Shown piece by piece: positions 2,705 through 57,575 of a DNA stretch of 64,000 nucleotides. The stretch is from an uncultured Acidobacteriota bacterium (lineage in GTDB: Bacteria; Acidobacteriota; Thermoanaerobaculia; Multivoradales; UBA5704). Each line of letters starts with the position of its first letter. Position 1 is the stretch's first letter. The translations under genes were made by a program, and so were the position numbers. Below the pieces are notes generated by a model. The model was not told the DNA's origin and made no database searches. It saw only the letters and a program-made list of their open reading frames with translations. The stretch is taken from the NCBI GenBank assembly GCA_963770895.1, contig CAVYRF010000001.1:928001-992000 (forward strand). Reading direction: 5' to 3'.

Positions 2705-2716
2705 TCCTAAGCTCTG

Positions 2717-3834: not shown

Positions 3835-3841
3835 TCCTGGC

Positions 3842-4294: not shown

Positions 4295-4340
4295 GCCAAG
4301 CGCGCTGTGCCGCCAATCCATTGAAGAAAGGTCCACGCCT

Positions 4341-8078: not shown

Positions 8079-8460
8079 AGTGCACTGCCTTTCTCGCGTG
8101 GTCGTTGAACATCGTGCCGGCTCGGCCGGCGACAACAGCGTTTCGCAAACATTGATGCAACTGGCAACGCGTGGTGGATGGCGAGTCAAGCGGAGCCTGT
8201 CTCGCGTTGAGTGGGTGCCCGCGCGACGGCAGGCGGTTCAATCCGCGGTTGCCGGCAACAATAGGTGCCGCGCTGCCTGCTAGCGCACGGGGCGGCTCAG
8301 GCCTGCGAAGGCGCGCAGGCTGCGCAGCGTCTCGCGGGTCTTGTCCTCGGCTGAGAGGCCCGCTTCCGGCGCGATCAGGGTTGGAAACTGGCGGGCGTGG
8401 GCGCCGCCTGCCCGTTACTCGGCTCCTTGGGCGCCTTGAACACCATGCGAAGGCGCCGGC

Positions 8461-11269: not shown

Positions 11270-12727
11270 ATGGCGGCTCGCGGGGCGAGGGGCGGCGTGG
11301 GGCGCCGGGTGACGGGCGGCGACCAGGCCGTGGGTGTGGAGCGGCGGGCGTTCAAGCTGGTGGCGGTGGCCGGTGAGGATGCCGCGGCGCTCGACGCGGC
11401 GGCGCGGGAGGCGGCGGCGCGGCTCCGCGCGTCGCCCGCCGCGGAGCTCGGCAGGCTGGCGGCGGCCCTGCGGCGGGACGGGCCGGCGCCCAGGCACCGG
11501 CGCATGGTGGTGTGCCGGGAGCCAGGCGCGGCGATCGCGGCGTTGACGGGTGCCGTCGGCCCTGGGGCGGCGCGGGTGTGGAGCGGGGTGGCGGGGCGGC
11601 GGGCGCCGGCGGTGTCGTTCCTGTTTTCGGGGGTCGGCGATCAGTATCCGGGGATGGCGCACGGACTCTATCGGCAGGAGCCGGTGTTCCGCGCCGCCGT
11701 GGATCGGTGCGCCGAGATCCTCGTCCCCTGGCTGGGGCGCGACGTGCGGGAGGTGCTGTTTGCGCCGGCGCCGGAGGCGGCCGCACCGCCGGGGGAAGCG
11801 GGCGCAGCCGCGGGGCACGGCGGCCCGCAGCGGCGGATGGATCTCCGCCAGATGCTGGGACGGAGCGGGGCGGCCACATGGGCGCCGGCCAACCCGCTCG
11901 ACCAGACCCTTTTCGTGCACCCGGCGCTGTTCACGGTGGAGTATGCGCTGGCGCAGCTGTGGATGTCCTGGGGCGTGGTGCCGCGGTCGCTCGCCGGCTA
12001 CAGCGTCGGCGAGTACGTGGCGGCGTGCCTGGCAGGAGTGTTCGAGCTCGCCCAGGCCTTGCGGCTGGTGGCGGTGCGGGCGCGCATCCTGGACGAGCTG
12101 CCGGCGGGCGCGATGCTGAGCATCTTCCTTCCGGAGGCGGACTGCGCGGCGCTCCTGGGAGAGGGCTTGTGGCTCGCGGCGGTGAACGGACCGAGCCTTT
12201 GCGTGGTGGCGGGGGAGAGCGCGGCGGTCGAGGCGCTGGCGTCGCGGCTCCAGGAGCGGCGCGTGCCGTGCCGCCGGTTGGCCGCCGGACACGCGTTCCA
12301 TTCGCCGCTGCTGGCGCCGGCGGTGGCGCCGCTGGTGCGCGAGGCGGCGGCGCTCGCGCTGCGGCCGCCGGCGGTGCCATTGCTGTCGAACGTCAGCGGC
12401 GGATGGATCGGCGCGGCGGAGGCGACGGACCCCGAGTATTGGGCGCGCCACATGTGCCGGCCGGTGCGCTTCGCGGCGGCGCTCGCCACGCTCGGTACGG
12501 GGGCGGCGCGGGCGCTGGTCGAGATCGGGCCGGGGAGCACGTTGTGCAGCATGGCTCTCCAGGGCGCCATGCCGGTGGCGCCGGTGGTGGCGGTGCCGTC
12601 GCTGCCGCACGCGCAGGACGCGGAGCCCGACCTCGAGGTGATGGTGTCGGCGCTCGGCAGGCTCTGGCTCGCGGGGGTCGAGCCCGACTGGCGGGCGTTC
12701 GACGGCGAGCACCTGGGCACCCGCTGA
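11270..12727 (+). CDS. Free-standing malonyl-type acyltransferase built like a cis-AT (KS-AT linker + AT)
   Basis: 'FLFSGVGDQYPGM', active site 'GYSVGEY' (11996-12016), 'AVNGP', 'HAFHS' (malonyl signature) and post-AT 'LGRLWLAGVEPDW'. No KS or ACP. Start could be GTG 11309. Confidence 0.88.
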   Translation: MAARGARGGVGRRVTGGDQAVGVERRAFKLVAVAGEDAAALDAAAREAAARLRASPAAELGRLAAALRRDGPAPRHRRMVVCREPGAAIAALTGAVGPGAARVWSGVAGRRAPAVSFLFSGVGDQYPGMAHGLYRQEPVFRAAVDRCAEILVPWLGRDVREVLFAPAPEAAAPPGEAGAAAGHGGPQRRMDLRQMLGRSGAATWAPANPLDQTLFVHPALFTVEYALAQLWMSWGVVPRSLAGYSVGEYVAACLAGVFELAQALRLVAVRARILDELPAGAMLSIFLPEADCAALLGEGLWLAAVNGPSLCVVAGESAAVEALASRLQERRVPCRRLAAGHAFHSPLLAPAVAPLVREAAALALRPPAVPLLSNVSGGWIGAAEATDPEYWARHMCRPVRFAAALATLGTGAARALVEIGPGSTLCSMALQGAMPVAPVVAVPSLPHAQDAEPDLEVMVSALGRLWLAGVEPDWRAFDGEHLGTR

Positions 12728-12907
12728 CCCCGCGGTGTAAAGCCGCCGGCGCGCGCGGTCCGCGGCCGGCCGGCAGGATGCCGGGACGGACCCCGATTGG
12801 GCGGCGGCCGACACTTAAGGAGAGAGGCCGCGCGGGCGAGGACAACGGTGCGGCGCCGGGTTGCGGCCGCGGGCGCCGCCGGTCGCGCAGTGGGGGATTC
12901 GAGAAGG

Positions 12908-14862
12908 ATGGATGGCCATGATGTGTTGCGAGCTTTCGCCGGCTCGGTAGCCGGGGGACCGGCGCGCATTGCTTTGCAGGCTGGGGCGCGCCGCATCTCG
13001 TATCGCGATCTCGACGAATGGACGGACGCGTTGGCCCGCGCTCTGCGGCCGGCCGGGCCGGGCGCGGTGGTCGCGGTCTGCGCCGGCGATCCGCTGGCCT
13101 GGGCGGCGGCGCTTATCGGCGTGCTCAAGGCCGGCTGTGTCTTCGCGCCGCTCGACCTGGCGCAGCCGCCGGCGCGGTTGCTGACGGTGCTGCGGCAGCT
13201 CGCGCCGCGCTGGTTCGTGGGCTCGGTGACGGAGGCGCCCGGCGGCTCCGCTGGCGGTGCAGACGATGCGGCAGAGCCGGCGGCGCTCGCGGTGCTCCAG
13301 GCTGTGGGCTGGAGCGGTGAGGTGGGGTGGTGCCGGCTCGACACGGCGCGCCTCGCGGTGACGGCGCAGCCGCCGGGCGCCGGCTCGGGCGCTGCGGCTG
13401 GGGGCGCTATCGCTCCGGGCGCTGCCGCTCAGGGCGCCGCGGCGCCGCCGCCGGCCGATCCCTGCTACGTGTTCCAAACCTCGGGGTCGACCGGCGTGCC
13501 GAAGCTGATCGCCGGGCGGTACGAGGCGATCGGGCATTTCGTGCGCTGGGAGGTGGAGCTTCTCGGACTGGGCCCCGGCGTGCGGGTGAGCCAGCTCGCG
13601 GCGCCGCACTTCGATGCCTGGCTGCGCGACGTCTTCACCCCGCTCGCCTGCGGCGGCACGGTGTGCGTGCCGCCGGCAGCCGAGGTGCGCCTGGACGCAG
13701 CGGCGCTCGCCGACTGGATCGAGCGCGAGGGCATCGAGGTGCTGCATTGCGTACCGTCGCTCTTCCACCTGGTGGCGGCGGGCGAGCTGGCGCCGGAGCG
13801 CTTCGCGCGGCTGCGCGCCGTGCTGCTCGCCGGCGAGGCGCCGGTCGCCGCGGACCTGGCGCGGTGGTTCGCCGTCTTCGGGCGGCGGGTCCGGCTGGTC
13901 AACCTCTACGGTCCGTCGGAAACCACGATGACTAAGCTGTTCCACGAGATCGTGCCGCACGACCTCGGGCGGCGCGCGATCCCGGCGGGGCGGCCGATGC
14001 CCGGCGCGGCGGTGCTGCTGGTCGACCGCCGCGGCCGCCCCGCGGCACCGGGTGCGGTGGGTGAGATCCTGCTGCGCACGCCGTACGCGGCGCTCGGCTA
14101 TCTCGGGCAGCCGGAGGCGACCGCCGCGGCGTTCGTACCCAATCCGTGGAGCGACGGCGCTGGCGACCGCGTCTACCGCACCGGCGACCTCGGCCGCCTG
14201 CTGCCGGACGGCGCGGTCGACCTGCTCGGGCGGCGGGATCAGCAGGTCAAGGTGCGCGGCCAGCGAGTCGAGATCGGCGAGATCGAAGCGGCGCTCGCCG
14301 CCCACCCCGCGGTCGCGGCGGCGGCGGTGGCGGCGCGGCGGGACGGCGAGGGTCTGCCGGCGCTCTGGGGCTTCGTGGTGACCGGCGAGGAGCTGGCGCC
14401 GCGGGCGCTGCGCGACTGGCTGCTGGCGCGCCTGCCGGCGGCGCTGATACCCGACCGCTTCGTGCGGCTGCCCGCGCTGCCGCGTCTCGGCAGCGGCAAG
14501 GTCGATCGCCGGGCGCTGGCGGCGCTCGACGTGGAACAGCCGGGCGCCGCCACGCCGCCGCTCGCGCCGCGCAATCCCACCGAGGAGCAGCTGCTGGCGA
14601 TCTGGCACGAGGTGACGGCCACCCGCGGCGCCGGCGTGCGCGACGATTTCTTTGCCGCCGGCGGCCACTCGCTCCTCGCCGCGCGCCTGCTGCTGCGGGT
14701 GCGCCACGTCTTCGGCGTCGAGGTGCCGCTGGTCGAGTTCTTCGACCACCCGACCATCGAAGATCTGGCGGCGAACGTCGAGGAGCGCATGCTGGCCCGC
14801 GCCGACCCGGCGGAGCTCGCGGCGCTGCTGGGCGAGCTCGACGGCGCCGGGGCGGCCGCGCC

Positions 14863-14866
<4 letters not shown>
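12908..14866 (+). CDS. NRPS initiation module A-T
   Basis: A-domain cores 'TSGSTGVPK', 'YGPSE', 'YRTGDL' and 'SGKVDR'; PCP 'GGHSLL'; acidic C-terminal docking helix. Pocket read by eye: DARHLALMTK. Confidence 0.93.
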
Positions 14867-28180
<13,314 letters not shown>

Positions 28181-28184
<4 letters not shown>

Positions 28185-31100: not shown

Positions 31101-32701
31101 CCGGGCGCTTCGCGGCGCACCCGGGGGCGGCGGTCGAGCTGACGGTGGTCTCCGACCGCCTGCACGCGGTGGACGGCGGCGACCGGCCGCACCCTGAACG
31201 GGCGGCGCTCCTGGGCACCTGCCGCGTGCTGCCGCAGGAGCTGGAGCACGTGAGCTGCCGCAGCCTCGATCTCGACGTGGCGGGTGGCGTCGAGCAGGCG
31301 GCGGCGCTCTGCCTGGCGGAGCTCGCCGCGCCGGCGGCCGAACCGGTCGTGGCGTGGCGCGGGCCGTATCGCTGGCTGCCGAGCTGGGAAGCGGTGCCGC
31401 TCGCCGACGCGGCGCCCGGCGCCGGCCTGCGGCCGGGGGGCGTCTACGTGGTGACCGGCGGCCTGGGCGGCGTCGGCCTGGAAGTGGCGGAGCTGCTCGC
31501 CGCCGGCGGCGCCCGGCTGGTGCTCGTCGGCCGCACGCCGTTGCCGCCGCGCGAGACCTGGGACGCCTGGCTCCCAGCCCATCCCGCCGGCGACGCGACG
31601 AGCGCCCGCATCCGCCGCCTGCAGGCGATCGAGGCGCGGGGCACCGCGCTCCTCCTCGCCGCCGGCGACGTCACCGACCGCGGGCAGATGGCGGCGGTGC
31701 GCGACGCGGCGCGGCAGCGCTTCGGCGCCGTGCACGGTGTTTTCCATGCCGCCGGGATCGCCGGCGGCGGGCTTCTGGCGACACGCACGCGCGAGCAGGC
31801 GGCGGCGGTCCTGGCGCCCAAGGTCGCCGGCACGCGGGTGGTGGCCGAAGTGTTCGGCGCCGTTGCCGGGGAGGCCGGGGAGGCCGGAGCCCTCGACCTC
31901 CTGGTCCTCTTCTCGTCGCTCAACGCGCTCACCGGCGGCATCGGGCAGGCCGACTACGCCGCGGCCAACGCCTTCCAGGACGCGTTTGCGGCGGCAGCCG
32001 CTGCGGCTCCGGCGACCCCGCCGATCACCGGCCGCACGCGCGTCGTCTCCATCAATTGGGACGCCTGGCAGGGCGCCGGCATGGCGTCGGCGGCCGACCT
32101 GCCCGCGGAGCTGCAAGCCTGGCGCGCCGCGCAGCTCGCCGAGGCGATCGAGCCGGCGGAAGGGCGCGCGGCGCTGGCGCGCATCCTGGCGGCGGACCTG
32201 GTACGGGTGGCGGTCGCGACCGACGACCTGGACGAGCGCCTGCGCGCCGCCGCAAGCCTGCGCCTGAGCGCTGCCCTGGCGCTCGCCGCCGCCGCCGCGC
32301 CGCCGCACCGCAACCCGCACCCGCGGCCGGCGGTGGCACCGGCCTACGTGCCGCCGGAGACGCCGGACGAAGAGCTCCTCGCCGGCCTCTGGCAGGAGCT
32401 TCTGGGCATCGCGCCGATCGGCCGCGACGACGGCTTCTTCGAGCTGGGCGGCCACTCGCTGCTCGCCGGCCAGCTCGCCGCCCGCATCCGCCAGCAGGTC
32501 GGCATCGACCTCCCCTTGCAGGCGGTCTTCGCCCATCCCACGCCGGCGCGGCTCGCCGTGGCGATGCGCGATGGCAGCGATGGTGGCGACCGTGGCGACG
32601 GTGGCGAAGACCACCAAGGCGGGGCGGTCGGCGCCGCGCCGGTGCTGGCGCCGCGGCCCCGTATCGGACGCCGCGTGCCGTTCCCCGGGGCGTTCGAATG
32701 A
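28181..32701 (+). CDS. Type I PKS module KS-AT(inactive)-KR-ACP
   Basis: KS triad intact ([21 protein letters not shown]). AT reads GYDGGE instead of GHSxG and lacks the HAFH subdomain. KR has GGLGGVG and [12 protein letters not shown] has GGHSLL. Confidence 0.95.
28211..29502 (+). repeat. KS copy 1, near-identical to KS copy 2 (51285-52636)
   Basis: Both start 'gcgatcgcggtcgtcggcatgagcgggcgcttcccggg' and share long identical stretches (e.g. [28 protein letters not shown]). Confidence 0.9.
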
Positions 32702-41700: not shown

Positions 41701-44700
41701 CATGGCGGCGTGGTGCCGGTGCTCGCGCCGCTGCCCATCCAGTACGCCGACTACGCCCTCTGGCAGCGCGGCTGGCTGCGCGGCGAGCTGCTGGCCGGCG
41801 AGGTGGCGTGGTGGCGCGAACGGCTTGCCGGCCTGCCGCCCGAGCTGCCGCTCCCCTGGGACCGCCCGCGGCCGGCCGTGCCGCGACGGGCGGCGCACCT
41901 GGCGCGGCGGCCGCTGGCCGCGGCGGCGGCGCTCGCGGCGCTGGCGCGGGCGCACGGGGCGACGCTCTTCATGACGCTCCTCGCGGCGTTCCAGGTGCTG
42001 CTGGCGCGCCTGGGCGGCGGCGACGACGTGCCGGTCGGGACACCGGTCGCCAACCGCACGCGGCCCGAGGTCGAGGGGCTGGTCGGCCTCTTCGTCAACA
42101 CGCTCGTGCTGCGCGGCGATCTCGCCGCGGCGCCGGCCTTCGATGCCTTCCTGGCGCGGACCCGCGACGCGGCCCTGGCCGCCTACGCCCACCAGGAGGT
42201 GCCGATCGAGAAGCTGGTCGAGGCGCTGGCGCCGGTGCGCGACGCCGGCCGCCAGCCGCTGTTCCAGGTCCTGTTCACCCTGGAGGAGGCGCCGCTCGCC
42301 GGGCTGCGGCTGGGCGGCGTCGCGCTGGCGCCGCTCGCCGCCGCCCCCGCACCGGCGAAGTTCGACCTGACGCTTGCGGTGACGCGCCAGGGCGGCGAGC
42401 TGACGGCGACGCTGGAGCTCGACGGCGACCGCTTCGACGCGGCGACCGGCGAGCTCCTGGCCGACTGCTTCGCGACCCTGGTTGCAGGCATCGCGGGCAT
42501 CGCCGGCATCGCCGCGGCGCCGGCCCCCGGTGTCGACGCGCTGCCGCTTCTCGACACGGCGGCGCGGCGCGCGGTGCTGGCGGCGGCGGAGGGGGAGCGG
42601 GTGAGGCGCCCGGCGCGCGGCCTGCACGAGCTGTTCGAAGCGCAGGCCGCGCGCACGCCGGACGCGGTGGCGCTGGTCGACGCGGACCGCCACCTCACCT
42701 ACCAGGCGCTCGACGAATGGGGGAACTTGCTGGCCCACCGCCTGGCGCGGGTGGGCGTCGGCGCCGACGCCCGCGTCGGCATCTGCGCCGAACGCTCCGC
42801 GGCGATGAGCGCCGCGCTCCTCGCGGTGCTCAAGGCGGGCGGGGCGTTCGTGCCGCTCGATCCGGATCATCCGCCGGAACGGCTGGCGGGCGAGATCGCC
42901 GAAAGCGAGGCGCGGGTGGTGCTGGTCACGGCAGCCGTCGCGGCGCGCCTGCCGCGGCTCCCTGCCGGCACGGTGGTGCTGCGCATTGCGGCGCCGCCGC
43001 CGTCGCCGGCAAGCGAGCGGGCGGCGCTGCCGCGGCGGGCGGCGCTGCCCGCGGCGCTGGCCTACGTGATCTTCACCTCCGGCTCGACCGGCAGGCCCAA
43101 GGGCGTCATGGTGTCGCACGGGGCGATCCTCAATCACGAGCTGTTCGTCGCCGAGCGCTACCCGCTGAATGCCGGCGACACCGCGCTGCAGATCACGCCG
43201 TTCTCGTTCGACGCCGCGCTCTGGGAGCTCTTCACCCCGCTCGCCGCCGGCGCGCGCCTGGTGGTGGCGCGGCCGGGCGGCCATCGCGATCCGTCCTACA
43301 TCACGCGGCTCGCCGCGGCCGAGGGGGCGACGGTGCTGCAACTGGTGCCGTCGATGGCGGCGCCGCTGCTCGACGATCCGGGCATCGCCGCCTGCCGCGC
43401 CCTGCGCCTGGTGGCGTGCGGCGGCGAGCCGCTGCCCGGCGAGCTGGCCGACCGGCTGATGGCGCGCCTGGGCGTCGCGCTGGTCAACTTCTACGGTCCG
43501 ACCGAATGCGCCATCGATGCCACGAGCTGGCCCTGCCGGCCGGGCGAGGGGCGGCGGCGCGTGGTGCCGATCGGCTTGGCGCTGCCCAACGTCCGGGCGC
43601 ACGTCCTGGACGACGGGCTGGCGCCCTTGCCGGTGGGGGCGCCCGGCGAGCTCTGCGTCGGCGGCGCCTGCCTGGCGCGCGGCTACGTCGGGCGGCCGGA
43701 GCTGACCGCCGAGCGCTTCGTGCCCGACCCGTGGAGTGCCCGGCCCGGCGAGCGGCTTTACCGCACCGGCGACCGGGTACGGCGGCTGCGCGGCGGCGAG
43801 ATCGAATACCTCGGGCGGCGCGACGCGCAGGTCAAGGTGCGCGGCGCCCGCGTCGAGTTGGGCGAGATCGAGGCGGTGCTGCTCGCCATGCCGGGGGTCA
43901 GCGAGGCGGCGGTGGTGATGGCCGGCGACCAGGACGCGCGGCGGCTCGTCGCCTGTGTGGTGCCCGCCGCCGGCGCGGCGGGCGATGATGGCGGTGGTGG
44001 CGGCGGCGGCAGGCCGGGGGAGCTCGCGGCGGCGCTGCGCCGCCACTGCCGGGAGCAGCTCCCCGAGTACATGCTGCCGCAGGCGTTCGTAGTGTTGGCG
44101 CGGCTGCCGCGTCTGCCGAGCGGCAAGCTCGACCGGCGGGCGGCGGCCGCCGCGGCGGCGGGTGCTGTCGCCGACGAGAGCGCGGCGTCGGCGGACGGCG
44201 CACCGCACACGCCCTACGAGGAGATCGTCGCCGGGCTCTGGGCGGAGGTGCTGGGGCGGCAGCGGGTCGGCGTTGAGGCCGACTTCTTCGCCGACCTCGG
44301 CGGTCATTCCCTGCTTGCCGCGCAGGTGGTGTCGCGAATGCGCGAGCGTCTGGGTGTCGAGGTGCCGCTGCGTGCGCTGTTCGACGCGCCGACCGTACGC
44401 GGTCTGGCGGCGGTCGCCCTCCGCACCTCGGAGATGGCGGCGACGGCGGCGATTGCCGTTCCGCTGCTCGCGCGGCGGGCCGGAGAGGAGCCGGCGGCGC
44501 TCTCTTTCGCCCAGGAGCGGATCTGGTTCCTCACCCAGCTGACGCCCGGGCTCACCGCTTACAACATGCCGCTGGCGCTCACCCTCCACGGTGATCTGGC
44601 GGTGCCGGCGCTGGCGCGGGCGCTCGCCGCGCTCACCGCGCGGCATGAGGTGCTGCGCACGCGCTACGCGGCGCTGGGCGGCCCGCCGGTGCAGGTGGTG

Positions 44701-47700
44701 GCGCCGGCGGCACCTGTGCCGCTGCCGGTCGTCGATCTCGGCGGGTTGGCCGGCGTGGCCGGCGGGGCGGCGGCCGAGGCGGCGCGGCTGGCGGCCGCCG
44801 AGGCGCGCCGCGCCTTCGATCTCGGCCGCGACCTGCCGCTGCGCGCCTGCCTGCTGCGGCTGGGCGGCGGCGAGCACCGCCTCCTCCTGACGCTGCACCA
44901 CATCGCCGCCGACGGCTGGTCGCTGGCGCTGGTCGCCGGCGAGCTGGGGCCGCTCTACGCCGGCGCGGCGCTCGCCACGCTGCCGCTGCAGTACGCCGAC
45001 TACGCGGCCTGGCAGCGGCGGGCGATGAGCGGCGCGGCGCTCGCGCGGCAGCTCGACTACTGGCGGCGGCAGCTGGCGGAGCTGCCGCCGCTGGAGCTGC
45101 CGGCGGATCGGCCGCGCCCGGCGGTGCCGCGGCAGCGCGGCGCGGTCCTCCCCTGGCGATTGCCGGCGGAGCTCGGCGACCGCCTGCGGCAGCTGGCGCG
45201 GGAGGCCGGGGCGACGCTCTTCATGACGCTCCTGGCCGGCTTCCAGGAGCTGCTCGCGCGCCACGCCGGGCAGGACGACTTCGCGGTCGGCGCCGCCGTC
45301 GCCAATCGCGGGCGGCGCGAGATCGAGGGTCTGGTCGGCCTTTTCGTCAATACCCTGGCGCTGCGCACGGGGGCCGGCGGCGACGGCGCCGCCGGCTTCG
45401 CGGCGCGGGTCGCCGCGACGCGCGAGACGACGCTCGCCGCCTACGCCCATCAGGACGTGCCGTTCGAGCGCCTGGTCGAGGAGCTGCAGCCGGCGCGCGA
45501 CACCCGCCGCGCGCCGCTCGTCCAGGTCATGCTGCTGTGGCAGAACACGCCGCTGCCGGCCCTCGCCCTGCCGGGCCTCGCGGCGTCGGCCGCCGCGATC
45601 GACAACGGCAGCGCCAAGCTCGATCTGCTGCTGTCGCTCGAGGACGAGGCGGGCGCCGTCGCCGGCGCCTGGGAGGTCGATACCGACCTCTTCGACGTGG
45701 CGACGATCGCGCGCTTCGCCGAGCGCTTCCGCTGCCTGCTGGCGGCGGCCGCGGCGGAGCCACGGCGGCCGCTTGCCGAGCTGCGCTGGTTCGACGAGGC
45801 GGAGCGGCGCGAGATGCTGGCCGCGGGGCAGGCCGCTCCGGCAGCCTGGCAAGCAGAGCGGCCGGTGCGGGCGCTGGTTGCCGAGCAGGCAGCGCGTGCT
45901 CCCGAGGCGGTGGCGGTGACCGCCGCCGGTGAGCGAGCGCTTTCCTATGGCGCGCTCGACGCCGCGGCCGCCCGCCTGGCCGGCGTGCTGCGGCGGCGCG
46001 GGGTCGGCCCCGAGGTGCGCGTCGGCGTCTGTCTCGACCGCGGCCCCGAGCTCCTGGTGGCGCTCCTCGCGGTGCTCGAGGCCGGCGGCGCCTATGTGCC
46101 GCTCGATCCGGCCCATCCGCCGGCGCGCCTCGCGGCGGCGATCGCCGATGCGGCGCCGCGGCTCGTGCTGGCCGCGCGCCGCCACCGCGCGCTCCTGGCC
46201 GGCGCAGCGGTCTACGACATCGAGGAGGCGCTGGCGGCGCCCGGCGGTGCCCCGCTGAGCACCGCGGCCGCCGGCGCGGCGCCGGCTGATCGCTGCCTGG
46301 ACGGGGCGGCGTACGTGATCTTCACCTCCGGTTCGACCGGCCGTCCCAAGGGGGTGGTGGTGACGCATCGCGGGCTGAGCAACCTGCTGCTCGCGATCCG
46401 CGACCTGGGGGCGGTGGTGCCGGGCGAGGCGCTGCTGGCGGTGACCACGCTCGGCTTCGACATCGCCGGGCTCGAGCTCTTCGTGCCGCTCGTCACCGGC
46501 GGCACGGTGGCGCTCGCGGCGCGCGAGGAGAGCGCCGAGCCGGCGCGGCTGCGGGCGCGGCTCGCCGATCCGCGCATCGCGGCAATGCAGGCTACCCCGG
46601 CCACCTGGCACATGCTGCTCGACGACGGCTGGCGCCCGCGGCGTGGGTTCCATGTCCTCTGCGGCGGCGAGGCGCTGCCGGCGGCGCTGGCGGCGGCGCT
46701 TCTCGCGCCCGGCGCGGCGCTGTGGAACCTCTACGGGCCGACCGAGACCACCATCTGGTCGACCGCCCTGCGTGTCGCGCCGCACGTGCCGCGAGGAGCG
46801 ATCGTGCCGCTCGGCGCGCCGCTCGCCCACACCACCCTGCGAGTGCTCGACGGCGGCGGCGAGCCGGTGCCGCTCGGTGTCGCGGGCGAGCTCCACATCG
46901 GCGGCGCCGGTGTCGCCCGCGGCTACCTCGATCGTCCCGACCTGACGGCCGAGCGCTTCGTCCCCGACGCCTGGGGCGCCGCCGGCGCGCGTCTTTACCG
47001 CACCGGCGACCGCGTCTGCCGGCGCTCCTCCGGCGCGCTCGAGTTCCTCGGCAGGCTCGACCACCAGGTGAAGCTGCGCGGCTTCCGTATCGAGCCGGCA
47101 GAGATCGCGGCCGTGCTGCGCGACTCACCGGGTATCGGGGAGGCGGTCGTCGTGCTGCGCGAGGACGTTCCCGGCGGTCCGCGGCTGGTGGCCTACGTCG
47201 TGCCGGCGGCGCCGGCGGGCGCGGGGAAGGTGCCGGCCGCGCCGGCGGATACCGCCGCGGCCGAGCTGGCGGCGGCGCTGCGCCGGCGCTGCCGCGAGCG
47301 GCTGCCGGCCCAGATGGTGCCGGCGGCGTTCGTGGTGCTGCCGCGGCTGCCGCTCACCCCCAACGGCAAGCTCGACCGCCGGGCACTGCCGGCGCCGGCG
47401 GCGCCAGCGTCGCCGGCAGCGGGGGAGCGCGGCAGCGCGGCTGCCGTGGCGGCGACGCCGCTCGAAGAGATCGTCGCCGGGCTGTGGGCGGACGTCCTGG
47501 GGCGCGAGCGCGTCGGCATCGAGGACGATTTCTTCACCGACCTGGGCGGTCACTCGCTCCTCGCGACGCAGGTGGTGGCGCGGCTGCGCGAGCGGCTGGG
47601 GTACGAGCTGCCGCTGCGCTCGCTCTTCGAGGCGCCGACGGTGCGCGCCTGGGCGGGGCGGGTGGCGGCCGCGGCGGAGGTGGGGGAGGACGCCGCGCTC

Positions 47701-50700
47701 GCAGCGGCGCCGCCGCGCCTCGAGCGGCGGCCGAAGGCGGCGCCTGGAGAGCCGCCGGCGCCGCTGCCGCTGTCGTTCGCCCAGGAGCGCCTCTGGTTCC
47801 TGGAGCAGTTGGCGCCGGGGCTCCCGGTCTACAACCTGCCGCTCGCGGTGCGCCTCTCCGGCCCGCTCGACCGCGCCGCGCTCGCCCGTGCGCTGGCCGC
47901 GGTGGTGGCGCGCCACGAGGCGCTGCGCACCCGCTTCCGCTTCGCCGGCGGGCGGCCGGTGCAGGAGGTGGCGCCGGCGCTGGCGATCGACCTGCCGGGC
48001 GCGCCGCTGCTGGCGCTGCCGCTGGTCGATCTCACCGGCGTTGCGGCGCCCGCGGGTGCGACGGCAAGCGCGACCGCGCCAGGCACGGCGGCGGCCCTCT
48101 CGATGCCGGCAAGCACGGTGGCGGCGCGGCTCGCGGCGGCCGAGGCGGCACGGCCTTTCGATCTCGAGATGGCGCCGCTGCTGCGCGCGACGCTCGTGGC
48201 GCTGGCCGCGGGCGAGCACCTGCTGCTCCTGACCCTGCACCACATTGCCGGCGACGGCTGGTCGTTCGGTGTGCTGCTGCGCGAGCTGGGTGCGCTCTAC
48301 GCCGGCAGGGTGCTGCCGGAGCTGCCGGTGCAGTATGCCGACTATGCCCTGTGGCAGCGGCGATGGCTGCGCGGCGCGGTGCTCGACGGCCAGCTCGCCT
48401 TCTGGCGGCGCCAGCTCGCGGAGCTGCCGGTGCTCGACATGCCGGCCGACCGGCCGCGGCCGCCGGCACAGGCGCACCGCGGCGGGCAGGTGCCGATCGC
48501 GGCGCCGGCGGCTCTGCTCCCGGCGCTCCGGCAACTCGGCCGCGCCGCCGGGGCGACGCTCTTCATGACCCTCCTGGCCGGCTTCCAGGCCCTGCTCGCG
48601 CGCTGGAGCGGGCAGCGCGACCTGGCGGTGGGGACGGCGGTCGCCAACCGCCGGCGCCGCGAGCTCGAAGAGCTGATCGGATTCTTCGCCAACACCCTGG
48701 TGCTGCGCGCCGACCTCGCGGCGGCGGCGGACTTCGCGGCGCTCCTCGCGCAGGTGCGCGCGACGACGCTCGACGCCTATGCCCACCAGGACGTGCCGTT
48801 CGAAAAGCTGGTCGAGCAGCTGCGCCCGACGCGCGACACCGGCCGCAACCCGCTGGTGCAGGTGATGCTCGTGCTGCAGAACGCGCCGCTGGCGGTGCCG
48901 CCGCTGCCGGGGTTGACCGCGGCCGCCGCGGCGGTCGCCGGCCACGGCGCGATGTTCGATCTGTCGCTGCTGCTGACCGAGGACGTGGACGGCGGGCTCC
49001 GCGGCGTGCTCGAGTACGACGCCGATCTTTGGGACGCGGCGACGGCGGAGCGCCTGGCGGACCACTTCCTGCGCCTGCTGGCGGCGGCCGCGGCGGCCAC
49101 GGAGGGGGCGACGGCGCCGCTCGCCGATCTGCCGCTGCTGTCGCCCGGCGAGCTGCGGCAGGTGGTCGAGGAGTGGAACCGGACGGCGCGCGAGCCGCGG
49201 CCGGCGGCGACTCTGCACGCGCGGGTCGCGGCGCAGGCGCGGCGCACGCCGGCGGCGGTGGCGGTGGTCCACGGCGGGCGGCGGCTCACCTACGGCGAGC
49301 TCGCCGACGCGGCGGGCGTCCTCGCCGGGCGGTTGCGGCGTGCCGGCGCCGGCGCCGGGCGGATCGTCGCGGTGAGCCTCGAGCGCTCCGCGGAGATGGT
49401 GGTGGCGCTGCTCGGCGTGCTCGCCGCGGGCGCAGCCTACGTGCCGCTCGATCCGGCCTATCCCGCCGAGCGGCGGGCCTGGGTCTTGGGCGATGCCGGC
49501 GCCGCCCTGGGGGTGACCTCGACGCGGCTTCAGGCGCAGGTCGCGGGCGACAGTGCGGTGGTGCGCTGGCTGTGTGTCGACCAGCCGGAGGAGGAGGCGG
49601 TGGCCGGCCCGGGTGGCGCGGCGGCGGTGGCATCGGCGGCGTTGGCGGCGGCGATGGCGTCGGCGGCCAGCGGGTGGCGGGAGACCGATCCCAGCGAGCT
49701 GGCGTACGTGATCTACACGTCGGGGTCGACGGGGCGTCCGAAGGGTGTGGCGATCGCGCACGAGAGCGCCTCGGCGCTGCTCGACTGGAGCGCGGCGACC
49801 TTTCCGGACGCGGCGTTGGCGGGGGTTTTGGCGAGCACCTCGATCAGCTTCGACCTGTCGATCTTCGAGCTGTTCGGCACGCTGGCGCGCGGCGGCACGG
49901 TGGTGCTCGCCGAGACGCTGTTCGATGAGGCAGCATGGGACTGCGGCTGGCCGGTGACGTTGGTGAACACGGTGCCGTCGCTGCTCGATTCGCTCCTGGC
50001 CGGCCGGCCGCTGCCCGCGAGCGTCCAGGTGGTGAACCTGGCGGGCGAAGCGCTGCCGGCGCGGCTGGTGGAGCGGCTGCGCGCGGCGCTTCCCGACGCG
50101 GTGGTGATGAATCTCTACGGTCCGTCCGAGGCGACGACGTATTCGACCTGGGCGCGGGTAGGTGGGGAGCCGGTGCCGCCGATCGGTCGGCCGGTCGCGG
50201 GGACTTGGGGCTACGTGCTCGACGGGGCGATGGCGCCGCAACCGGTGGGCGTACCGGGGGAGCTGTACCTGGGGGGCGCGGGCCTGGCGCGCGGCTACCT
50301 GGGCCGGCCGGAGCTGACCGCCGAACGGTTCCTGCCGGACCCCTTCGGTGATCAGAGGGGTAAGACGGGCTGGGGGGGCCAGGGGAGCCGGGGGGGCGAG
50401 CGTCTCTATCGCACCGGCGACCGGGTGCGCTGGCTTCGGGGGGGCGTGCTCGAATACCTGGGGCGGCTCGACGACCAGGTGAAGCTGCGCGGCTTCCGCA
50501 TCGAGCCTGGTGAGGTCGAGGCCGCGCTCGCCGGGCACCCGGCGGTGCGCGAGGCGGCGGTGGTGGTGGTGCGTCAGGACGCGGCGGGAGAGCGGCGGCT
50601 GGTGGCGTACGTCGCCCTCGCAGAGGCCGGTGAGCGGGCCGCCGCCGCGGGTGCCGCGGGCAATGGGAATGCCGCCGGCGCGAGCGCCGGGGACGCGGCC

Positions 50701-51198
50701 GCCGCGGAGCTTCGCCGCTACTGCCGCGAGCGCCTGCCGGCGCACCTGGTGCCGGCGGCGTTCGTGATGCTGCCGCGGCTGCCGCTCACCGCGAGCGGCA
50801 AGCTCGACCGCCGCGCCCTGCCTGCCCCCGAGGCTCCCGAAGCGGCGCTCGCCGGCCAGTTCGTGGCGCCGCGCAACGAGCTCGAACGCACCGTCGCCGC
50901 GATCTGGCAGGAGGTGCTGGGGGTCGAGCGGGTGGGCACCCGTGACAACTTCTTCGATCTCGGCGGCCATTCGCTGCTCCTGGTGAGCCTGCGCGACCGG
51001 CTGCGCCAGCGGCTGGGGCGCGACTTCACGCTGGTCGATCTCTTCCGCCATCCGACCGTCGCCGCCTTCGTGGACGCGCTGGCGCAGCCGGTCGCGGCCG
51101 AGCTGCCGCGCGGCGACATTGCGACGCGCGCCGCGCAGCGCGAGGCGGCGATGCGCGATCGGCGCTCGTTCCGGCCCGGCTCGAAAGGTGGGCGATGA
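32698..51198 (+). CDS. NRPS, 6166 aa: C-ACP-(C-A-T)x5 (Ser-clade variant, Leu, Gln-like, Gly, Ala)
   Basis: ATG at 32698. The first C is followed directly by an ACP-type carrier (LALDSL). Pocket codes read by eye: DVVHLGLVDK, DAWFLGNVVK, DAWQAGFIDK, DILQLGLIWK and DLFNNALTYK. No E or MT domains seen. Confidence 0.95.
48986..50820 (+). repeat. Copy 2 of near-identical end-of-C + Ala A-domain segment (copy 1 at 22735-24480)
   Basis: Direct sequence comparison by eye; same DLFNNALTYK pocket. Confidence 0.9.
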
Positions 51199-54100
51199 AG
51201 AGCGCCGGCGCGGCGCCCCCGGTGCCGACGGAGAGGCTCGACGCGGAGGACGCCCTCGCCGGCCTCGACCCGGATCTTGGCTCGGCGATCGCGGTCGTCG
51301 GCATGAGCGGGCGCTTCCCGGGCGCGGCGAGCGTCGCCGAGCTGTGGGACAACCTGCGCGCCGGCCGCTGCGGCATCCGCTTTCTGAGCGACCAGGAGCT
51401 GGCGTCTGCGGGGGTCGGCGCGGCGGAGCGCGACGACCCCACCTACGTGCGTGCGGCGGGGGTGTTGGGCGGCGCCGATCTGTTCGACGCCGGGCTCTTC
51501 GGCCTGACGCCGCGCGAGGCGGAGGTGATGGACCCGCAGCTGCGGGTGTTCCTCGAATGCGCCTGGGAGGCGCTGGAGGACGCCGGGCACGACCCCGAGC
51601 GCTTCCCCGGCTGGATCGGCGTCTATGCCGGCGCGGCGCTCGGCAAGTACTTGTGGCTCAACGTCGGGCGCCACCCGGAAGCGCTGGCCGCGGTCGGCAC
51701 CTTCCAGGCGATGATCACCAACGACAAGGATTTCCTCGCCACCCAGGTCAGCTACCGCCTGAACCTGCGCGGTCCCAGCATCGGCGTGCAGACCGCCTGC
51801 TCGACGTCGCTGGTCGCGGTGCACCTCGCCTGCCAGGGTCTGGTGAGCGGCGAGTGCGACATGGCGCTCGCCGGCGGCGTCGCGGTGAGCGTGCCGGAGC
51901 TGCGCGGCTACCGCTTCCAGCCGCGCTCCATCACCTCGCCCGACGGTGTCTGCCGGCCTTTCGACGCGCGGGCGGCGGGGACCATCCGCAGCAACGGTGC
52001 CGGGGTGGTGGTGCTGCGGCGGCTGCGCGACGCGCTGGCCGACGGCGACCGCGTGCTGGCCCTCTTGCGCGGCTCGGCGATCAACAACGACGGCGCCGCC
52101 AAGGTCGGCTACACCGCGCCCTCGGTCGGCGGCCAGGCGGAGGTGATCGCCGCGGCGCACGCGGTGGCGGGGGTGAGCGCGGAGAGCATCGGCTACGTCG
52201 AGGCGCACGGCACGGCGACGGCGCTCGGCGATCCCATCGAGGTGGCGGCATTGACGCAGGCGTTTATCGCCGGGGGCGCCGGGGGCGCCGGGGGCGCCGG
52301 CGACCCAGACGGCACCCGCGGCCCCGGTGGCGACGGCGCTCCCCGGAGCCGCGGGCTGTGCGCCCTGGGCTCGCTCAAGGGCAATCTGGGCCACCTCGAC
52401 GCGGCGGCCGGGGTTGCCGGCCTGATCAAGACGGTGCTCGCGCTGCAGCATGCTGAGCTCCCGCCCAGCCTCCATTACGAGACGCCCAACCCGCGCATCG
52501 ACTTCGCCGCCAGCCCGTTCTACGTCAACGCCCAACTGCGCCCCTGGCCCGCGGGGGAGACGCCGCGCCGCGCCGGCGTGAGCTCGTTCGGCATCGGCGG
52601 CACCAACGCCCACGTGGTACTGGAAGAGGCGCCGCCGATGATGGGAGCAGCGGGAGCGGCGGGAGCGGTGGCCGCGGCGGCCGGCAACGGTGAAGACGTC
52701 GCCGCCGGCGGCGACGCCTGGCAGGTGCTGGTGCTCGCGGCCCGCGACGAAACCGCGCTGCGTGCCGCGGCAGAGCGCCTGGCGCGCCACCTGACGCAGC
52801 AGGAGGAAGCGGCGGCGGACGGCGGCGGCGCCCCCGATCTCGCCGCGGTCGCCTACACCCTGCAGGTCGGACGCCGCGCCCTGGGCTGGCGCTGGTCGGC
52901 GCCGGTGCGCGGCATGGCCGAGGCGCGCGCCCGCCTCGTCGAGCTGGCGGTGGGAGACGTGGCGGCGACCGCCCCTCCCGCAGCGCGGCCGGCGGTGGCG
53001 TTCGTCTTTCCCGGCCAGGGTGCGCAGTTCGCCGGCATGGGTGCCGAGCTCTACCGCGAGGAGCCGGTCTTCCGCGCCGCGGTGGAGGAGTGCTGCGATT
53101 CCCTCGGGCCGGCGCTCGGCGGCGAGGTGCGGCGCTGGTTGACGATGGACGTGGCGGCGGGCGCCGGCGGCGCCGCGCCGGCGGACGGCGGCGACACCGC
53201 GGCGGCGCTCGATCAAACCTGGCTCACCCAGCCGGCGCTCTTCGTCTGCGAGCACGCCCTGGCCCGTCTCTGGATGAGCTGGGGGGTGACGCCTACGGCG
53301 CTTCTCGGCCACAGCGTCGGTGAGCTGGTGGCGGCGACCCTGGCCGGTGTCCTGACGCTGGCGGACGCCCTCCGCCTGGTCGCGGAGCGCGGCCGCCTCA
53401 TGCACTCCCTGCCGCCGGGCGCCATGCTGGCGGTGACGCTCGGCGAAGAGGCGCTCCTGGCGCGCCTGCCGGCGGAGCTCGACCTGGCGGTGGTGAACGG
53501 TCCGCGGCAGTGCGTGGCGGCCGGCCCCGAGCCGGCGGTCGCGGCGTTCGCGGCGGCGCTGGCCGAGGCGGGAGTGGCCGCACGCCGCCTGCGCACCTCG
53601 CACGCCTTCCATGCGCGCGGCATGGAGCCGATCCTCGACGAGCTGCGGCGTGTCGCGGCGGCGCTGCCGGCCGGCGAGCCCGCGCTGCCCTGCGTGTCGA
53701 GCCTGAGCGGCGATTGGGCGCGCCCCGGCGAGCTCGCCGACCCCGGCTACTGGGTGCGTCAGGCGCGGCAGACGGCGCGCTTCGGCGACGCCCTCGCCCG
53801 CCTGCTCGCCGAGCCCGGCCGCATCCTCCTCGAAGTCGGCCCGCGCCAGGGTCTCGCCCAGCTCGTGCGCCAGCTCGCCGCGGAGCCGGCCGCCGCGCAG
53901 CCGGCGACCGCAGCAGCGCCGACCGCGGCGGTGCTGACTGCAGCGGCAGCGACAGTGCCGGGGTCGACTGCAGCCGAGCCGATCGCGGCGGGGTCGACGT
54001 CAGCGGCGCCGATCGCAGCCGAGCCAACCGCAGCGATGACCCCGGCTGGCGCCGCCATAGCGGTTTTTTCCGGGCTGCGGCAGGCGCCCGCCGGTCACCG

Positions 54101-57100
54101 GGTCGCGGGCGGCCGGGAGCAGGTGCTGCGCACCCTGGGAGCGCTCTGGCAGCACGGCGTGGTGGTCGACTGGCCAGCCCTACACCGCGGCGCGCGGCGG
54201 CGCCGGGTGGCGCTCCCCACCTACCCCTTCGAGCGGCGCCGCTACTACCTGCCGACCGCCGAAGAAGAAGAGGCTTCCGGCGGAGGTGCGGCAGCGATAT
54301 CCGGCGGGGAGGGGTTGGTGGCAGGCGGCGGGGAGCTGGCGGCGACCGATCGGGGCGCGGTGGCGGCCGGGCATGCCGCCACGCCCGCGGGCGGCGCCGC
54401 TGCGCGGCGGGCGCTGCGCGACTGGTTCTACCTGCCGTCCTGGGAGCGCACGCTGCCGCCGCCGCCCGTAACGACGGTGGCGCCGCCCGCGGACGCGGCG
54501 CCCGGCCGCTGCCTGGTCCTGGCCGACCGCCACGGATTGGGCGCCGCGCTGAGCACGGCGCTCGCCGCCGGTGGCTGGCAGATCACGACCGTCGAGGAAG
54601 GCGAGGAGTACGCGGCAGACGGCAACGGGCGCTACCGGCTGCCGCCCGGCGACGGGGACGCCTGCCGGCGCCTCTGGCAGGAGCTGGCGGCGGGGCCGGG
54701 CCTGCCGCACCGCGTGCTGCACCTGTGGAACGTGGCGCCCGATGACGGCGCGCCGGATGACGAAGCCTCCGACGTTGACGCGCCGGACTGCGTAGCGCCC
54801 GAAGTTGGCTCGTCGGCCGACGCAGCGCCCGACGTTGGCGCGCCGGACGGCGCAGCGCCCTACGACGGTGTCCCCGGCAACGGTGCTCTCGGCAACGGCG
54901 CGCCCTGCGGCGACCCTCCCGACGACGAACCGGAACGCAGCACGGCGGCGCTCGCCGCCGGCCTCGACCGCGCCTTCTACAGCCTGCTCCACCTGGCGCA
55001 CGCGCTCGGCCACCACGCCGCGGCGCTTGCCGCCGGAGCCGGGGTCGAGGTTACCGTGGTCGCCGACCGGCTGTATGCGATCGAAAGCGGCGACCGGCCG
55101 CGGCCGGTGGCGGCGACGCTTCTCGGGCCGTGCCGCGTCCTGCCGCAGGAGCTGCCGGGTGTGCGTTGCCGGGTGATCGACCTGGACCCGCGGCTGCCGC
55201 CGGCGCGCCAGGCGGCGCGCTGCCTGGCGGAGATCGCGGCGCCGGACGGCGATCCGGTGGTGGCCTGGCGCGGGCCGCACCGCTGGGTGCCAGCCTGGAA
55301 GGCGGCGCCGCTCCCCGCAGCGGCGCCGGGCGGTGGCGCAGCGACGGCCGGCGGTGGCGCAGTGGTGGGCGCGGGCGCCCACCTGATCACCGGCGGGCTG
55401 GGCGGCCTGGGATTGGAGGTCGCGCACCTGCTGGCGGCGCGCGGCGGTGCGCGCCTGGTGCTCCTCGGGCGCACGGAGCTGCCCGAGCGCGCGGTGTGGG
55501 AGGCCTGGGTGGACGGCCATCCAGGGGCGGGTCGCACGAGCGCCACCCTCCGCCGCCTGCTCGCCCTGGAGGAGCAGGGCGCCGAGCTGTTGATCCTCGC
55601 CGGCGACGTCACCGACGCGGCGCGCATGGTCGAGGTGCGGCGGCTCGCCGAGGCGCGCTTCGGTCCCCTCGACGGCATCTTCCACGCCGCGGGCGTGCCG
55701 GGCGGCGGCCTGCTGCAGACCCGGTCCGCGGCGCGCGCCGCCCAGGTGCTGGCGCCCAAGGTGCAGGGCACGGCGGTTCTGGCGCGGGTGTTCGGCGGTC
55801 CCGGAGCTCCGACTGGTCCCGGCATTCCTCGCGGCGCCGGCGGTTCTGGCACCGCCGTTGGGCCGGGTGGTCCAGGGAGTCTCGCCATTCCAGGCGGCCC
55901 CGGCGGTCCGGCCGGCTCCGGTGGTTCGTCCGGCTTGGACGGTCAGGTCGGCCCCGGCGCTCCCGGCAGTCGGGCGCTGCCGCGGCTCGTCCTCTGCTCG
56001 TCGCTCGCCGCCCTGACCGGCGGCATCGGCCAGGCGGACTACGCGGCGGCCAACGCCTTCCTCGACAGCTTTGCCGCCACCGCGGCAGCCGCGGGTGACG
56101 GACCGGCGCGAGTCGTCGCCATCGCCTGGGACGCCTGGCAGGAGGTCGGCATGGCGGCGGCGGCCGAGGTCCCGGCGGAGCTGCGCGAACAGCACTCTCG
56201 CGGCCTCGCGGAGGCGATCACTCCCGCCGAAGGGCGCCAGGCGCTCGCCCGCATCCTGGCGAGCGGCGCGCCGCAGATCGCGGTGTCCACGGTGGCGCTC
56301 GCCCCACGCCTCGCCGCCGCGGCGCGCTGGCGCCTGACGGCGGCGCTTGCGGGCACGGCCGCGGACGGGGCAGCGCCGGGAGCCGCCGATCGCCGCGCCC
56401 GCCATCCGCGGCCGGCGGCGCTGGGCCCGTGCCTGCCGGCGGCGGCACCGCTCGAAGCACGCCTGATCGAGATCTGGCAAGCGCTCCTGGGCATCGAGCC
56501 GATCGGCCGCGACGACGATTTCTTCGAGCTCGGCGGCCATTCGCTCCTCGCCATCCAGCTCGCCGCCGCCCTGCGCGCCCAGCTTGCCGTGGAGGTGCCG
56601 CTCGACACACTGGTCGGCGCCGCCACCCCGGCGGCCCTCGCCGCCGCCCTGGCGCCCGCGGCGGGCGGCTCCGTCGCCACGTCCGACGCCGCGAGCGCCC
56701 GCCCGGCCGGCGACCGTTCATCGGCCGCAGCGCCTGCCAGCTACGCTGGCGCTGCCGCTGTGCCCGCCGCGCCGCGCCTTGCCGCCCTGCAGGCGGCCGG
56801 GTCGCAGCTGCCTTTCTTCTGCGTCCACCCCGCCGGCGGCAACACCTTCTCGTACCGCGAGCTCGCCGCCGCCCTGGGGCGCGAGCGGCCGTTTCATGCG
56901 ATTCAGTCCGACGGGCTCGACGACGAGCTGATCGCCGGCCTCACCATCGAGACGATGGCGGCGCGCTACGTCGCCGCGGTGCGCGGCGTCCAGCCTGCCG
57001 GCCCCTACCATCTGGGCGGCTGGTCGATGGGTGGTCTGGTCGCCTACGAGATGGCGCGTCAGCTCGCCGCCGCGGGCCAGGCGGTGGCGCTGCTGGTGCT

Positions 57101-57575
57101 GTTCGACACCCGCGCCCGCACCCGCACCGGCGACGTCGACGAGCTGCCGGAGGACGACGTGGAAATCCTCTTTGCCCTCTACGGCGACGATCTCGGATTG
57201 ACGCTCGCCGAGCTCCAGGCGCTCCCCGCCGCCGCGCTCCTGCCGTTCGTCGTCGAGCGCGGCCACAGCGGCGGTTTTCTCGCGCCCGACTTCGGCGTCG
57301 AGCAGGCGCGCCGTCTGCTCGCGGTGTACAAGCGCAACCGCCGCCTCATGTGGGATTACGAGCCGCGCCCCTATCCCGGCTCCCTCGTCCTGCTGCAGGC
57401 CCGCGACCGCCGGCGCGGCGAAGCCGCACCCTTCGGGCTCGGCTGGGATCTCTTCGCGCGCGGCGGCCTCGACGTCGAGATCGTCCCTGGCAACCACAAC
57501 AACCTGATGGCCGCGCCCCGTGTCGCCGCGGTCGCCGCCGCCGTCGCGCGCCGTTTCGCCGCCCTCGTGCCCTGA
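51195..57575 (+). CDS. Terminal type I PKS module KS-AT-KR-ACP-TE
   Basis: KS triad intact. AT has GQG, GHSVGE and HAFH (malonyl). KR has GGLGGLG and YAAAN. ACP has GGHSLL. TE has GWSMGG and GNH. Confidence 0.96.
51285..52636 (+). repeat. KS copy 2, near-identical to KS copy 1 (28211-29502)
   Basis: Direct sequence comparison by eye. Confidence 0.9.
53895..54040 (+). repeat. Degenerate 15-nt tandem repeat inserted in frame near the end of the PKS-2 AT
   Basis: Encodes [40 protein letters not shown]. Confidence 0.75.
54735..54929 (+). repeat. Degenerate 15-nt tandem repeat (13 units) inserted in frame in the PKS-2 KR structural subdomain
   Basis: Encodes [65 protein letters not shown]. Confidence 0.8.

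Follow-up and report, generated by a model that had tools for sequence, protein, structure and literature searches.

The window analysed here, a stretch of 64,000 nucleotides from an uncultured Acidobacteriota bacterium, holds a hybrid non-ribosomal peptide synthetase-polyketide synthase (NRPS-PKS) cluster that we read as a convergent assembly line with two chain initiations, in which a specialised condensation (C) domain would join the two arms and a single thioesterase (TE) would free one lipo(depsi)peptide. We give this reading a probability of about 0.55. The original prediction had described one linear backbone with an amino acid, left as a question mark, in its middle; at that place we found a fatty-acyl-type acyl carrier protein (ACP) followed by a starter-type C domain.

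The C-ACP unit and a probable second chain start

Domains were called with Pfam and with a local annotation by motifs and hidden Markov models (HMMs), the latter built from the window's own domains. All cluster genes lie on the plus strand, in the order AT / A-T / C-A-(break)-T-C-A-T-C-A-T-C-A-T / KS-AT0-KR-ACP / C-ACP-(C-A-T)x5 / KS-AT-KR-ACP-TE, where A, T, KS, AT, AT0 and KR stand for adenylation, thiolation, ketosynthase, acyltransferase, acyltransferase without serine and ketoreductase domains. Pfam and the HMMs agree with the count given originally (one starter A-T, nine C-A-T modules, one C-ACP unit, two PKS modules and the TE), to which a stand-alone AT, not described before, has to be added; the ACP and the C domain after it had not been recognised as an initiation unit.

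The same unit is found in three family relatives of the window's genome (G000), labelled G011, G021 and G035, in differing arrangements. A C gene is followed by FAAL-ACP-C-A(Ser) in G011 and G021, FAAL being a fatty acyl-AMP ligase, and by ACP-C-A(Ser) in G035, while C-ACP-C-A forms one frame in G000. The first of these C domains, hereafter the DRW C domain, is encoded on its own in the three relatives, where its C-terminus is conserved, and is fused to the ACP by a linker of about 35 amino acids in G000. The internal ACP carries the motif LxLDSL, as FAAL-fused ACPs do, and the peptidyl carrier proteins carry GGHSL. In a tree of 38 cluster C domains and 50 of 260 background domains, with classes named from architecture and not from external references, the four second C domains grouped together (support 0.96) among the ACP-headed starter C domains, whose own clade had a support of 0.98; the four DRW C domains made up a clade (0.89) among the elongation C domains. 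A sequence search of the PDB did not single out a starter C domain, the best matches being Txo1/Txo2. The motif HHxxxDR occurs in one of the 287 C domains of G000 (27 without a parsable motif) and in all four homologous clusters, and this combination of rarity and conservation therefore points to a special role for the DRW C domain.

Regarding the ACP-starter-C heads of G000 (n = 24), the 6 kb upstream contain no further NRPS/PKS domain in 17 cases, three heads lie behind a fused FAAL and four behind other modules; since 17 of the 24 have no such domain upstream, we regard these heads as chain starts. Only in this cluster does a C domain stand directly before one of them. Because the ACP is of the FAAL type, the C domain after it belongs to the starter clade and the homologues have a FAAL at this place, a second, lipid-primed initiation point is very probably present in the line. 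Further heads of this kind are situated within larger NRPS loci or immediately after them (G000:C2:3713507 and C1:1190302; L089, G003:C3:1059814-1063296, G003 being another genome censused for such heads), and second initiations may recur in the lineage.

Concerning the loading of the ACP, we counted 29 starter-type C domains in G000 (32 rows minus three of low score), 24 of which come with an ACP, in every case with the serine of its DS motif. Three of these 24 heads have a fused FAAL, one has a remnant, and 20 lie more than 50 kb from any FAAL. A stand-alone FAAL (G000:C2:910086-911972, minus strand; L070:10087-11973) sits among non-biosynthetic genes; it has orthologues at 76-79% in seven of nine same-genus genomes (one partial), and its neighbours are common to four of the five loci fetched. 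In G003, 14 heads were counted among the 25 best loci, one with a fused FAAL, and the genome has three FAAL-like matches. The missing FAAL is probably supplied in trans, most likely by this stand-alone enzyme. The wider scheme, in which the HHxxxDR C domain grafts a peptide-ketide arm onto a lipopeptide-ketide arm while one shared, housekeeping-like FAAL primes the internal ACP and some 20 other heads, is more tentative, and we would put it somewhat below even odds. The sole MbtH-like gene and the sole phosphopantetheinyl transferase (PPTase) gene of G000 are adjacent to each other, away from the clusters (G000:C2:2497438-2499313).

Two predicted arms, their proposed joining and the alternatives

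The scheme set out here builds on the domain order, motifs, orthology, conservation and pattern of FAAL presence and absence that we observed; its chemical steps, trans partners, joining and product are all predicted from sequence. Arm 1 would start on the free A-T protein with an acidic amino acid, followed by a Tyr-like residue, X, Ala and a Pro-clade residue. PKS1, with malonyl from the stand-alone AT, would extend residue 5 by C2 and reduce the product to a 3-hydroxyacyl-ACP. Arm 2 would start independently: a FAAL would place a fatty acid on the internal ACP (in cis in G011 and G021, in trans here), the starter C domain would N-acylate residue 6, and Leu, Gln-like, Gly and Ala residues would follow before a second malonyl/KR step. 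With brackets around qualified residues, the arms would read acidic-Tyr-X-Ala-(Pro)-C2(OH) and acyl-(Ser)-Leu-(Gln)-Gly-Ala-C2(OH)-TE. The DRW C domain would then move arm 1 onto the nascent arm 2, at the 3-OH of a hydroxy-fatty acyl group or at the side chain of residue 6; since arm 1 has neither TE nor reductase, it would need this domain for its off-loading. The product freed by the TE would contain two 4-amino-3-hydroxy units and would either be linear or form a ring with the free N-terminus of arm 1. The order conserved in three genera, the C-ACP fusion in G000 and, by analogy, the icosalide and zeamine precedents support the joining.

The residue names used for the A-domain codes (Ala, Leu, Gly, Ser, Pro, Gln and Tyr) are the standard assignments and are presumed to hold here. 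The calls of Ala, Leu, Gly and a Gln-like residue, and of Ala plus C2 before the TE, coincide with those made originally. Pro had been proposed for residue 5, which is secure for the homologues and doubtful for the present cluster: compared with their orthologous Pro-type domains, A5 is changed at five of nine pocket positions and has lost Val236 and Gln239, frequent marks of Pro (PMC12283262). The A1 pocket, DARHLALMTK, probably selects an acidic amino acid (Asp/Glu/aminoadipate class); it has seven of ten letters in common with that of zeamine Zmn16 A1, DPRHLALLAK, for which aminoadipate is predicted (PMC3547906). PDB sequence searches gave no assignment for A1 or A5. The cluster's codes were absent from the literature searched, which did not cover the code tables of PMC12283262, where matches may exist. 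In pairwise alignment, the DNA of A4 and A10 (window positions 22800-24300 and about 49000-50600) shows an identity of 93-97%, compared with 60-74% in a control pair, a similarity that self-BLAST overlooked; KS1 and KS2 are 86-94% identical. Both likenesses are probably the result of recent gene conversion, and the near-identity of A4 and A10 suggests that it replaced a Ser module 4.

A KS-(AT)-KR-ACP module with an intact KR and no dehydratase (DH) directly follows an NRPS module twice, in agreement with the earlier view of a hybrid line with two NRPS-to-KS/KR junctions able to give 4-amino-3-hydroxy acids. The KS catalytic triads are intact in both modules, both KRs keep the NADPH motif and the catalytic K, S and Y, and the TE keeps GxSxG, D and H. 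AT2 has GHSVG and HAFH, and AT1 is without its serine (GYDGG); it is dead in G011 as well as in G000, and G035 has lost it by deletion. Since AT1 is dead or deleted, and the stand-alone AT is malonyl-type and co-conserved, the latter most likely serves as a trans-AT for the ACP of PKS1, the transfer itself being a prediction. An ESM Atlas search with this protein confirmed its family and gave nothing more. The stereochemistry set by a KR is commonly read from its LDD or W fingerprint; the KRs show neither, and stereochemistry is not readable from their sequence. Ala from A10 together with PKS2 is predicted to give a 4-amino-3-hydroxypentanoyl unit before the TE. This unit occurs in the chitinimines, in which it is credited to an Ala module with a KR (PMC13291983), and in delftichelin A (PMC13122642); NRPS-PKS/KR pairs are reported for the didemnin, burkholdac, hapalosin, thalassospiramide and nosperin clusters, with the remark that the route had not been verified by experiment (PMC12081711).

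Regarding the frame break, it lies inside the first of two near-identical 15-nt repeats, with G runs of six at 17995 and seven at 18009, and it is the only one within the 46 kb of the cluster. Contigs of a relative about 94% alike (443 nt; one each in runs X3 and X5, from two studies) span 17702-18161 and are a net 17 nt shorter; 17 nt is off a multiple of three by just the one base that is missing here, so the relative keeps its reading frame across this stretch. In G011 and G035, too, the homologues are continuous at the A2-T2 linker. Runs X1 and X2 contain short exact pieces, none of those listed covering the break. It is probably a homopolymer under-call or an assembly error.

One could argue that the cluster encodes two co-transcribed lines with two products. 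The DRW C domain would then release arm 1, whether by transfer to a free amine or alcohol, through hydrolysis or through head-to-tail cyclisation, and arm 2 would give a separate lipopeptide, acyl-(Ser)-Leu-(Gln)-Gly-(4-amino-3-hydroxypentanoate). The free-standing C gene with its conserved C-terminus in G011, G021 and G035 fits such a division of labour, C domains are known to release chains onto soluble acceptors (Zmn19, VibH; PMC3547906), and arm 2 is complete by itself and resembles other ACP-starter-C heads. We consider it unlikely, however, given that order and spacing are kept in three genera at about 55-65% protein identity, that in G000 the C domain and the arm 2 protein form one in-frame fusion, that the window has no gene for an amine or polyamine acceptor, and that the flanks of the cluster, except the permease, are unshared. 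The cluster might instead have decayed in this strain, with a real frameshift, a lost FAAL and methyltransferase (MT) and drifted pockets leaving arm 1 or the whole line silent. The break at 17995, the missing FAAL and module-2 MT of the homologues and the diverged pockets 5 and 6 would suit that history; it is improbable nonetheless, as the 46 kb contain a single break, which falls in the G run of a repeat and at which a close relative keeps the frame, the catalytic motifs are intact, and loss of the FAAL is the rule in the genus. Least credible, and very improbable in our view, is a single linear line in which C-ACP would be an ordinary A-less C-T module that takes its amino acid from a neighbouring or trans A domain or is skipped. 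Such modules are common in G000 and the family, and loading by other A domains has been described for thalassospiramide (10.1101/560987), but the carrier is FAAL-type (LALDSL, not GGHSL), the next C domain is starter-type and the homologues have a FAAL at this place.

Several points weigh against the convergent line with a FAAL in trans. The Arg that replaces the motif Gly in HHxxxDR could impair catalysis, and a DRW C domain encoded separately in three of the four clusters fits a releasing as well as a joining enzyme. FAALs usually load plain fatty acids, which leaves the joining nucleophile in doubt, and residue 6 is not clearly Ser in G000. Two of the nine same-genus genomes have no orthologue of the stand-alone FAAL, and the fused FAALs of other G000 clusters could act in trans in its place. 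For this strain an open frame at 17995 is only probable, and product, expression and activity of the line are predictions.

Cluster features, relatives and host

The features are listed in Table 1. G000 comprises 8.16 Mb in 3 contigs with 71% GC, and the cluster region has 75-78%. Plots of GC at third codon positions track the large open reading frames, with a single frame switch near 18000. Translational coupling of the genes, as had been claimed, was found at four of the five junctions, which overlap by 4 nt (GTGA or ATGA; at 14863, 28181, 32698 and 51195), and not between the AT and A-T genes, which are uncoupled by a gap of 180 nt. In line with the original prediction, Pfam reported no epimerisation (E), MT or DH domain in the seven cluster proteins, nor any heterocyclisation (Cy) domain.

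Table 1. Positions and predicted roles of the cluster features in the window
Feature	Position	Strand	Basis or remark
Stand-alone acyltransferase (GYSVG, HAFH; malonyl-type)	11270..12727	+	PF00698 E 5e-47; heads the cluster also in G011, G021, G035, G005
Starter A-T of arm 1, pocket DARHLALMTK	12908..14866	+	Pfam, local HMM
Arm 1 NRPS, modules 2-5, each C-A-T	14863..28184	+	Pfam, local HMM; C-A to about 17990, then frame change
Frame break, A2-T2 linker	17990..18015	+	Inside the leading member of a nearly identical pair of 15-nt G-rich repeats
PKS1: KS (C, H, H intact)-AT0 (no serine)-KR (intact)-ACP	28181..32701	+	
Gene C-ACP-(C-A-T)x5	32698..51198	+	Pfam, local HMM/motif
Specialised C domain HHIAGDRW (DRW C), elongation-type clade	32737..34122	+	Tree, motif census
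FAAL-type ACP, LALDSL, serine kept	34225..34434	+	Motif; cluster without FAAL
Starter-type C domain, HHLVADFT	34495..35946	+	Orthologue of C in FAAL-ACP-C of G011, G021; tree supports 0.96, 0.98
Arm 2, modules 6-10: A-T, then four C-A-T	35932..51198	+	
PKS2: KS-AT (GHSVG, HAFH)-KR-ACP-TE	51195..57575	+	Pfam, motifs
ADOP-family duplicated permease, convergent with TE gene	57610..60033	-	TIGR03434 848 bits, cut-off 622
A2 DATTMAAVCK	module 2		Tyr-like
A3 DAGIVAGVFK	module 3		No residue named; code conserved in homologues
A4 DLFNNALTYK	module 4		Ala
A5 DAHFLSLVVK	module 5		Pro clade, altered pocket
A6 DVVHLGLVDK	module 6		Ser clade, enlarged pocket (W239V, S301G)
A7	module 7		Leu
A8 DAWQAGFIDK	module 8		Gln-like
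A9	module 9		Gly
A10	module 10		Ala

The starter A-T is 62-68% identical in four other genomes of the 92 in the family, and at most 55% in the remainder. In the protein database, among the matches listed (120 of 547), 13 non-self proteins reached 55-69% over at least 97% of the length, followed by near-full-length matches at 48% or less. The whole cluster is found in the same order in G011 (complete), G021 (complete, with many frameshifts) and G035 (on three contigs), and only its first two genes in a fourth relative, G005, an assembly of about 1000 contigs and 84% completeness in which a search for the DRW junction found none. Order and spacing are kept across the three genera of the family that show this synteny, at a protein identity of about 55-65%. 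The common front part consists of AT, A(DARHL.LMTK)-T, Tyr-like, DAGI.AGVFK, Ser (Ala here), the Pro clade and KS-AT0-KR-ACP; the common rear part, of C(DRW), ACP, starter C, the Ser clade, a hydrophobic residue (a second Ser in G035), Gln-like, Gly, Ala-like and KS-AT-KR-ACP-TE. The permease occupies the same position in G011 (61%) and G021 (66%) and is a candidate exporter.

A class-wide pattern search found the cluster in two of 401 genomes (G000 and G011; 13 other family members sampled), and an order-wide AT search in three of 251, all inside the family and none outside it. A search of genome contigs for related loci returned six at 29-36% identity, none being the homologous cluster; one locus from a metagenome pattern scan (L072) has essentially the same sequence as G035 and was hence not counted. 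We rejected two ideas: that the C-ACP unit is an assembly artefact, since three other genomes have the identical junction, and that the cluster includes the genes upstream of 11270, since these are absent beside the homologues.

Besides, the relatives show differences of their own. In G011 a PRMT-like MT is inserted in the Tyr-like A domain of module 2 (L026:12172-13461) and none is present in the window's cluster; G021 and G035 have an insertion of similar size in module 2, and G000 has none. A sulfotransferase-SCP2 gene, a possible tailoring enzyme, is divergent from the AT gene of G011 (L027:3-1283), and the module 9 carriers of G011 and G021 (L024, L052) have GGQSL plus an insertion in place of GGHSL.

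Among the other genes of the window, two (8461-9996 and 10080-11075, both on the minus strand) have no Pfam or NCBIfam match, are divergent from the cluster and are absent beside the homologous clusters; the former contains CxxCH and is similar to unnamed clusters of the 'cytochrome c family'. A Ferritin-like (Ferritin_2) protein with a twin-arginine-like N-terminus is encoded at 6942-8081 (minus strand). On the plus strand, 1199-5908 holds a DUF418 protein, a hydrolase-like gene seemingly split between frames near 2717-3797, a MarR regulator and an MFS transporter, and 62635-64000 a PAS-PAS-PAS histidine kinase that continues past the window end.

An acidobacterial host, as proposed originally, is consistent with the permease, whose ADOP family we take to be acidobacterial, and with one of the closest A-T homologues among the matches listed, labelled Thermoanaerobaculia. 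G000 has more than 30 NRPS/PKS loci. A-T didomains of the DARH type turn up again, as split modules, in clusters of the family that are unrelated to this one (L059, L061, L062, L064, L065 and L066), several of these loci having a terminal C domain upstream or a free-standing one downstream. A-less C-T modules are common in NRPSs of the family, often in runs of two or three (L014-L023; G000 C1:1190302-1212474 and C2:3542474-3568093).

Soil Thermoanaerobaculia-like Acidobacteriota are rich in NRPS clusters. The present cluster is complete and conserved across several genera, and it comes in natural variants (FAAL in cis or trans, C domain fused or on its own, with or without an MT, A pockets exchanged), so that it is well suited to testing convergent assembly by C domains. 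To read it as a linear chain would mislead both synthesis from sequence and mass spectrometry searches with a wrong structure. If the grafting C domain and the shared FAAL are real, they would mean a new scaffold from uncultured Acidobacteriota and a genome-wide scheme of lipo-initiation. A shared FAAL would explain clusters that look incomplete or fail when expressed alone, and heterologous expression of most lipopeptide clusters of the genus would need that distant gene together with the single PPTase and MbtH.

Comparison with known systems

The architecture had been called unrecognised, and we found no description of the cluster in the literature searched, outside which most subscription papers lie; nor did it contain an internal FAAL-ACP behind a PKS-C junction, one FAAL serving many NRPS heads, or a characterised product from soil Thermoanaerobaculia-like Acidobacteriota. 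Each part has a precedent and the combination appears new, within comparisons that did not include MIBiG or the cluster of the acidobactamides (Acanthopleuribacter pedis; 10.1101/2024.08.18.608444), which come from the same phylum and are known here by name only.

Like pepstatin, the product would be an acylated peptide with two 3-hydroxy-4-amino units, but the pepstatin units derive from Leu and are made by discrete iterative enzymes with an F420H2 reductase (PMC12081711), whereas modular KRs would act here on chains ending in the Pro-like residue and Ala. The aspartic-protease inhibition suggested originally has nothing beyond this motif in its favour, the extended residues being Pro-like and Ala and not the Leu of statine, and we regard pepstatin-like activity as a weak guess. 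The chitinimines share 4-amino-3-hydroxypentanoate with the predicted product, attributed there to an Ala module plus PKS-KR after Leu-Gln, but have one initiation and a lipid from a synthase of the polyunsaturated fatty acid (PUFA) type (PMC13291983); the module order of chitinimines and delftichelin A differs from that of the cluster (PMC13291983, PMC13122642).

Zeamine (Zmn16-19; PMC3547906, PMC13291983) and the fabclavines share a DxRH-type first A domain and an aromatic second residue. As in zeamine, a PKS with KR follows the last NRPS module and is itself followed by a free-standing C domain (in three of the four clusters; fused in G000), which in zeamine is proposed to join a separately made lipid-bearing chain (PMC3547906). 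Unlike zeamine, the cluster has no PUFA-type synthase, aminotransferase or reductase, its partner arm would be an NRPS-PKS lipopeptide, arm 1 would have five residues in place of six, and there is no E domain. Genes for a pfa-like polyamine synthase were found neither among the window proteins scanned nor in a KS census near the cluster.

Icosalide synthetase IcoA of Burkholderia gladioli likewise has two chain initiations in one line with one TE, the embedded initiation having been shown in vitro and the joining proposed (PMC6553374). In both systems a starter-type C domain is embedded downstream of elongation modules with an elongation-type C domain before it; in IcoA module 3 this is an LCL domain directly before the chain-initiating one, proposed to acylate the hydroxyl (acyl-Ser) of the second chain (PMC6553374). 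Here, by contrast, an ACP (with a FAAL in two homologues) stands between the two C domains, and the second start would use its own ACP and a FAAL in cis or trans, whereas IcoA takes fatty acid synthase intermediates directly. Arm 1 would begin with an amino acid on an A-T and end in a PKS/KR, instead of beginning with a 3-hydroxyacyl group on a starter C domain, and the predicted chain has 10 amino acids and two ketide units, with a putative joining C domain of the HHxxxDR type.

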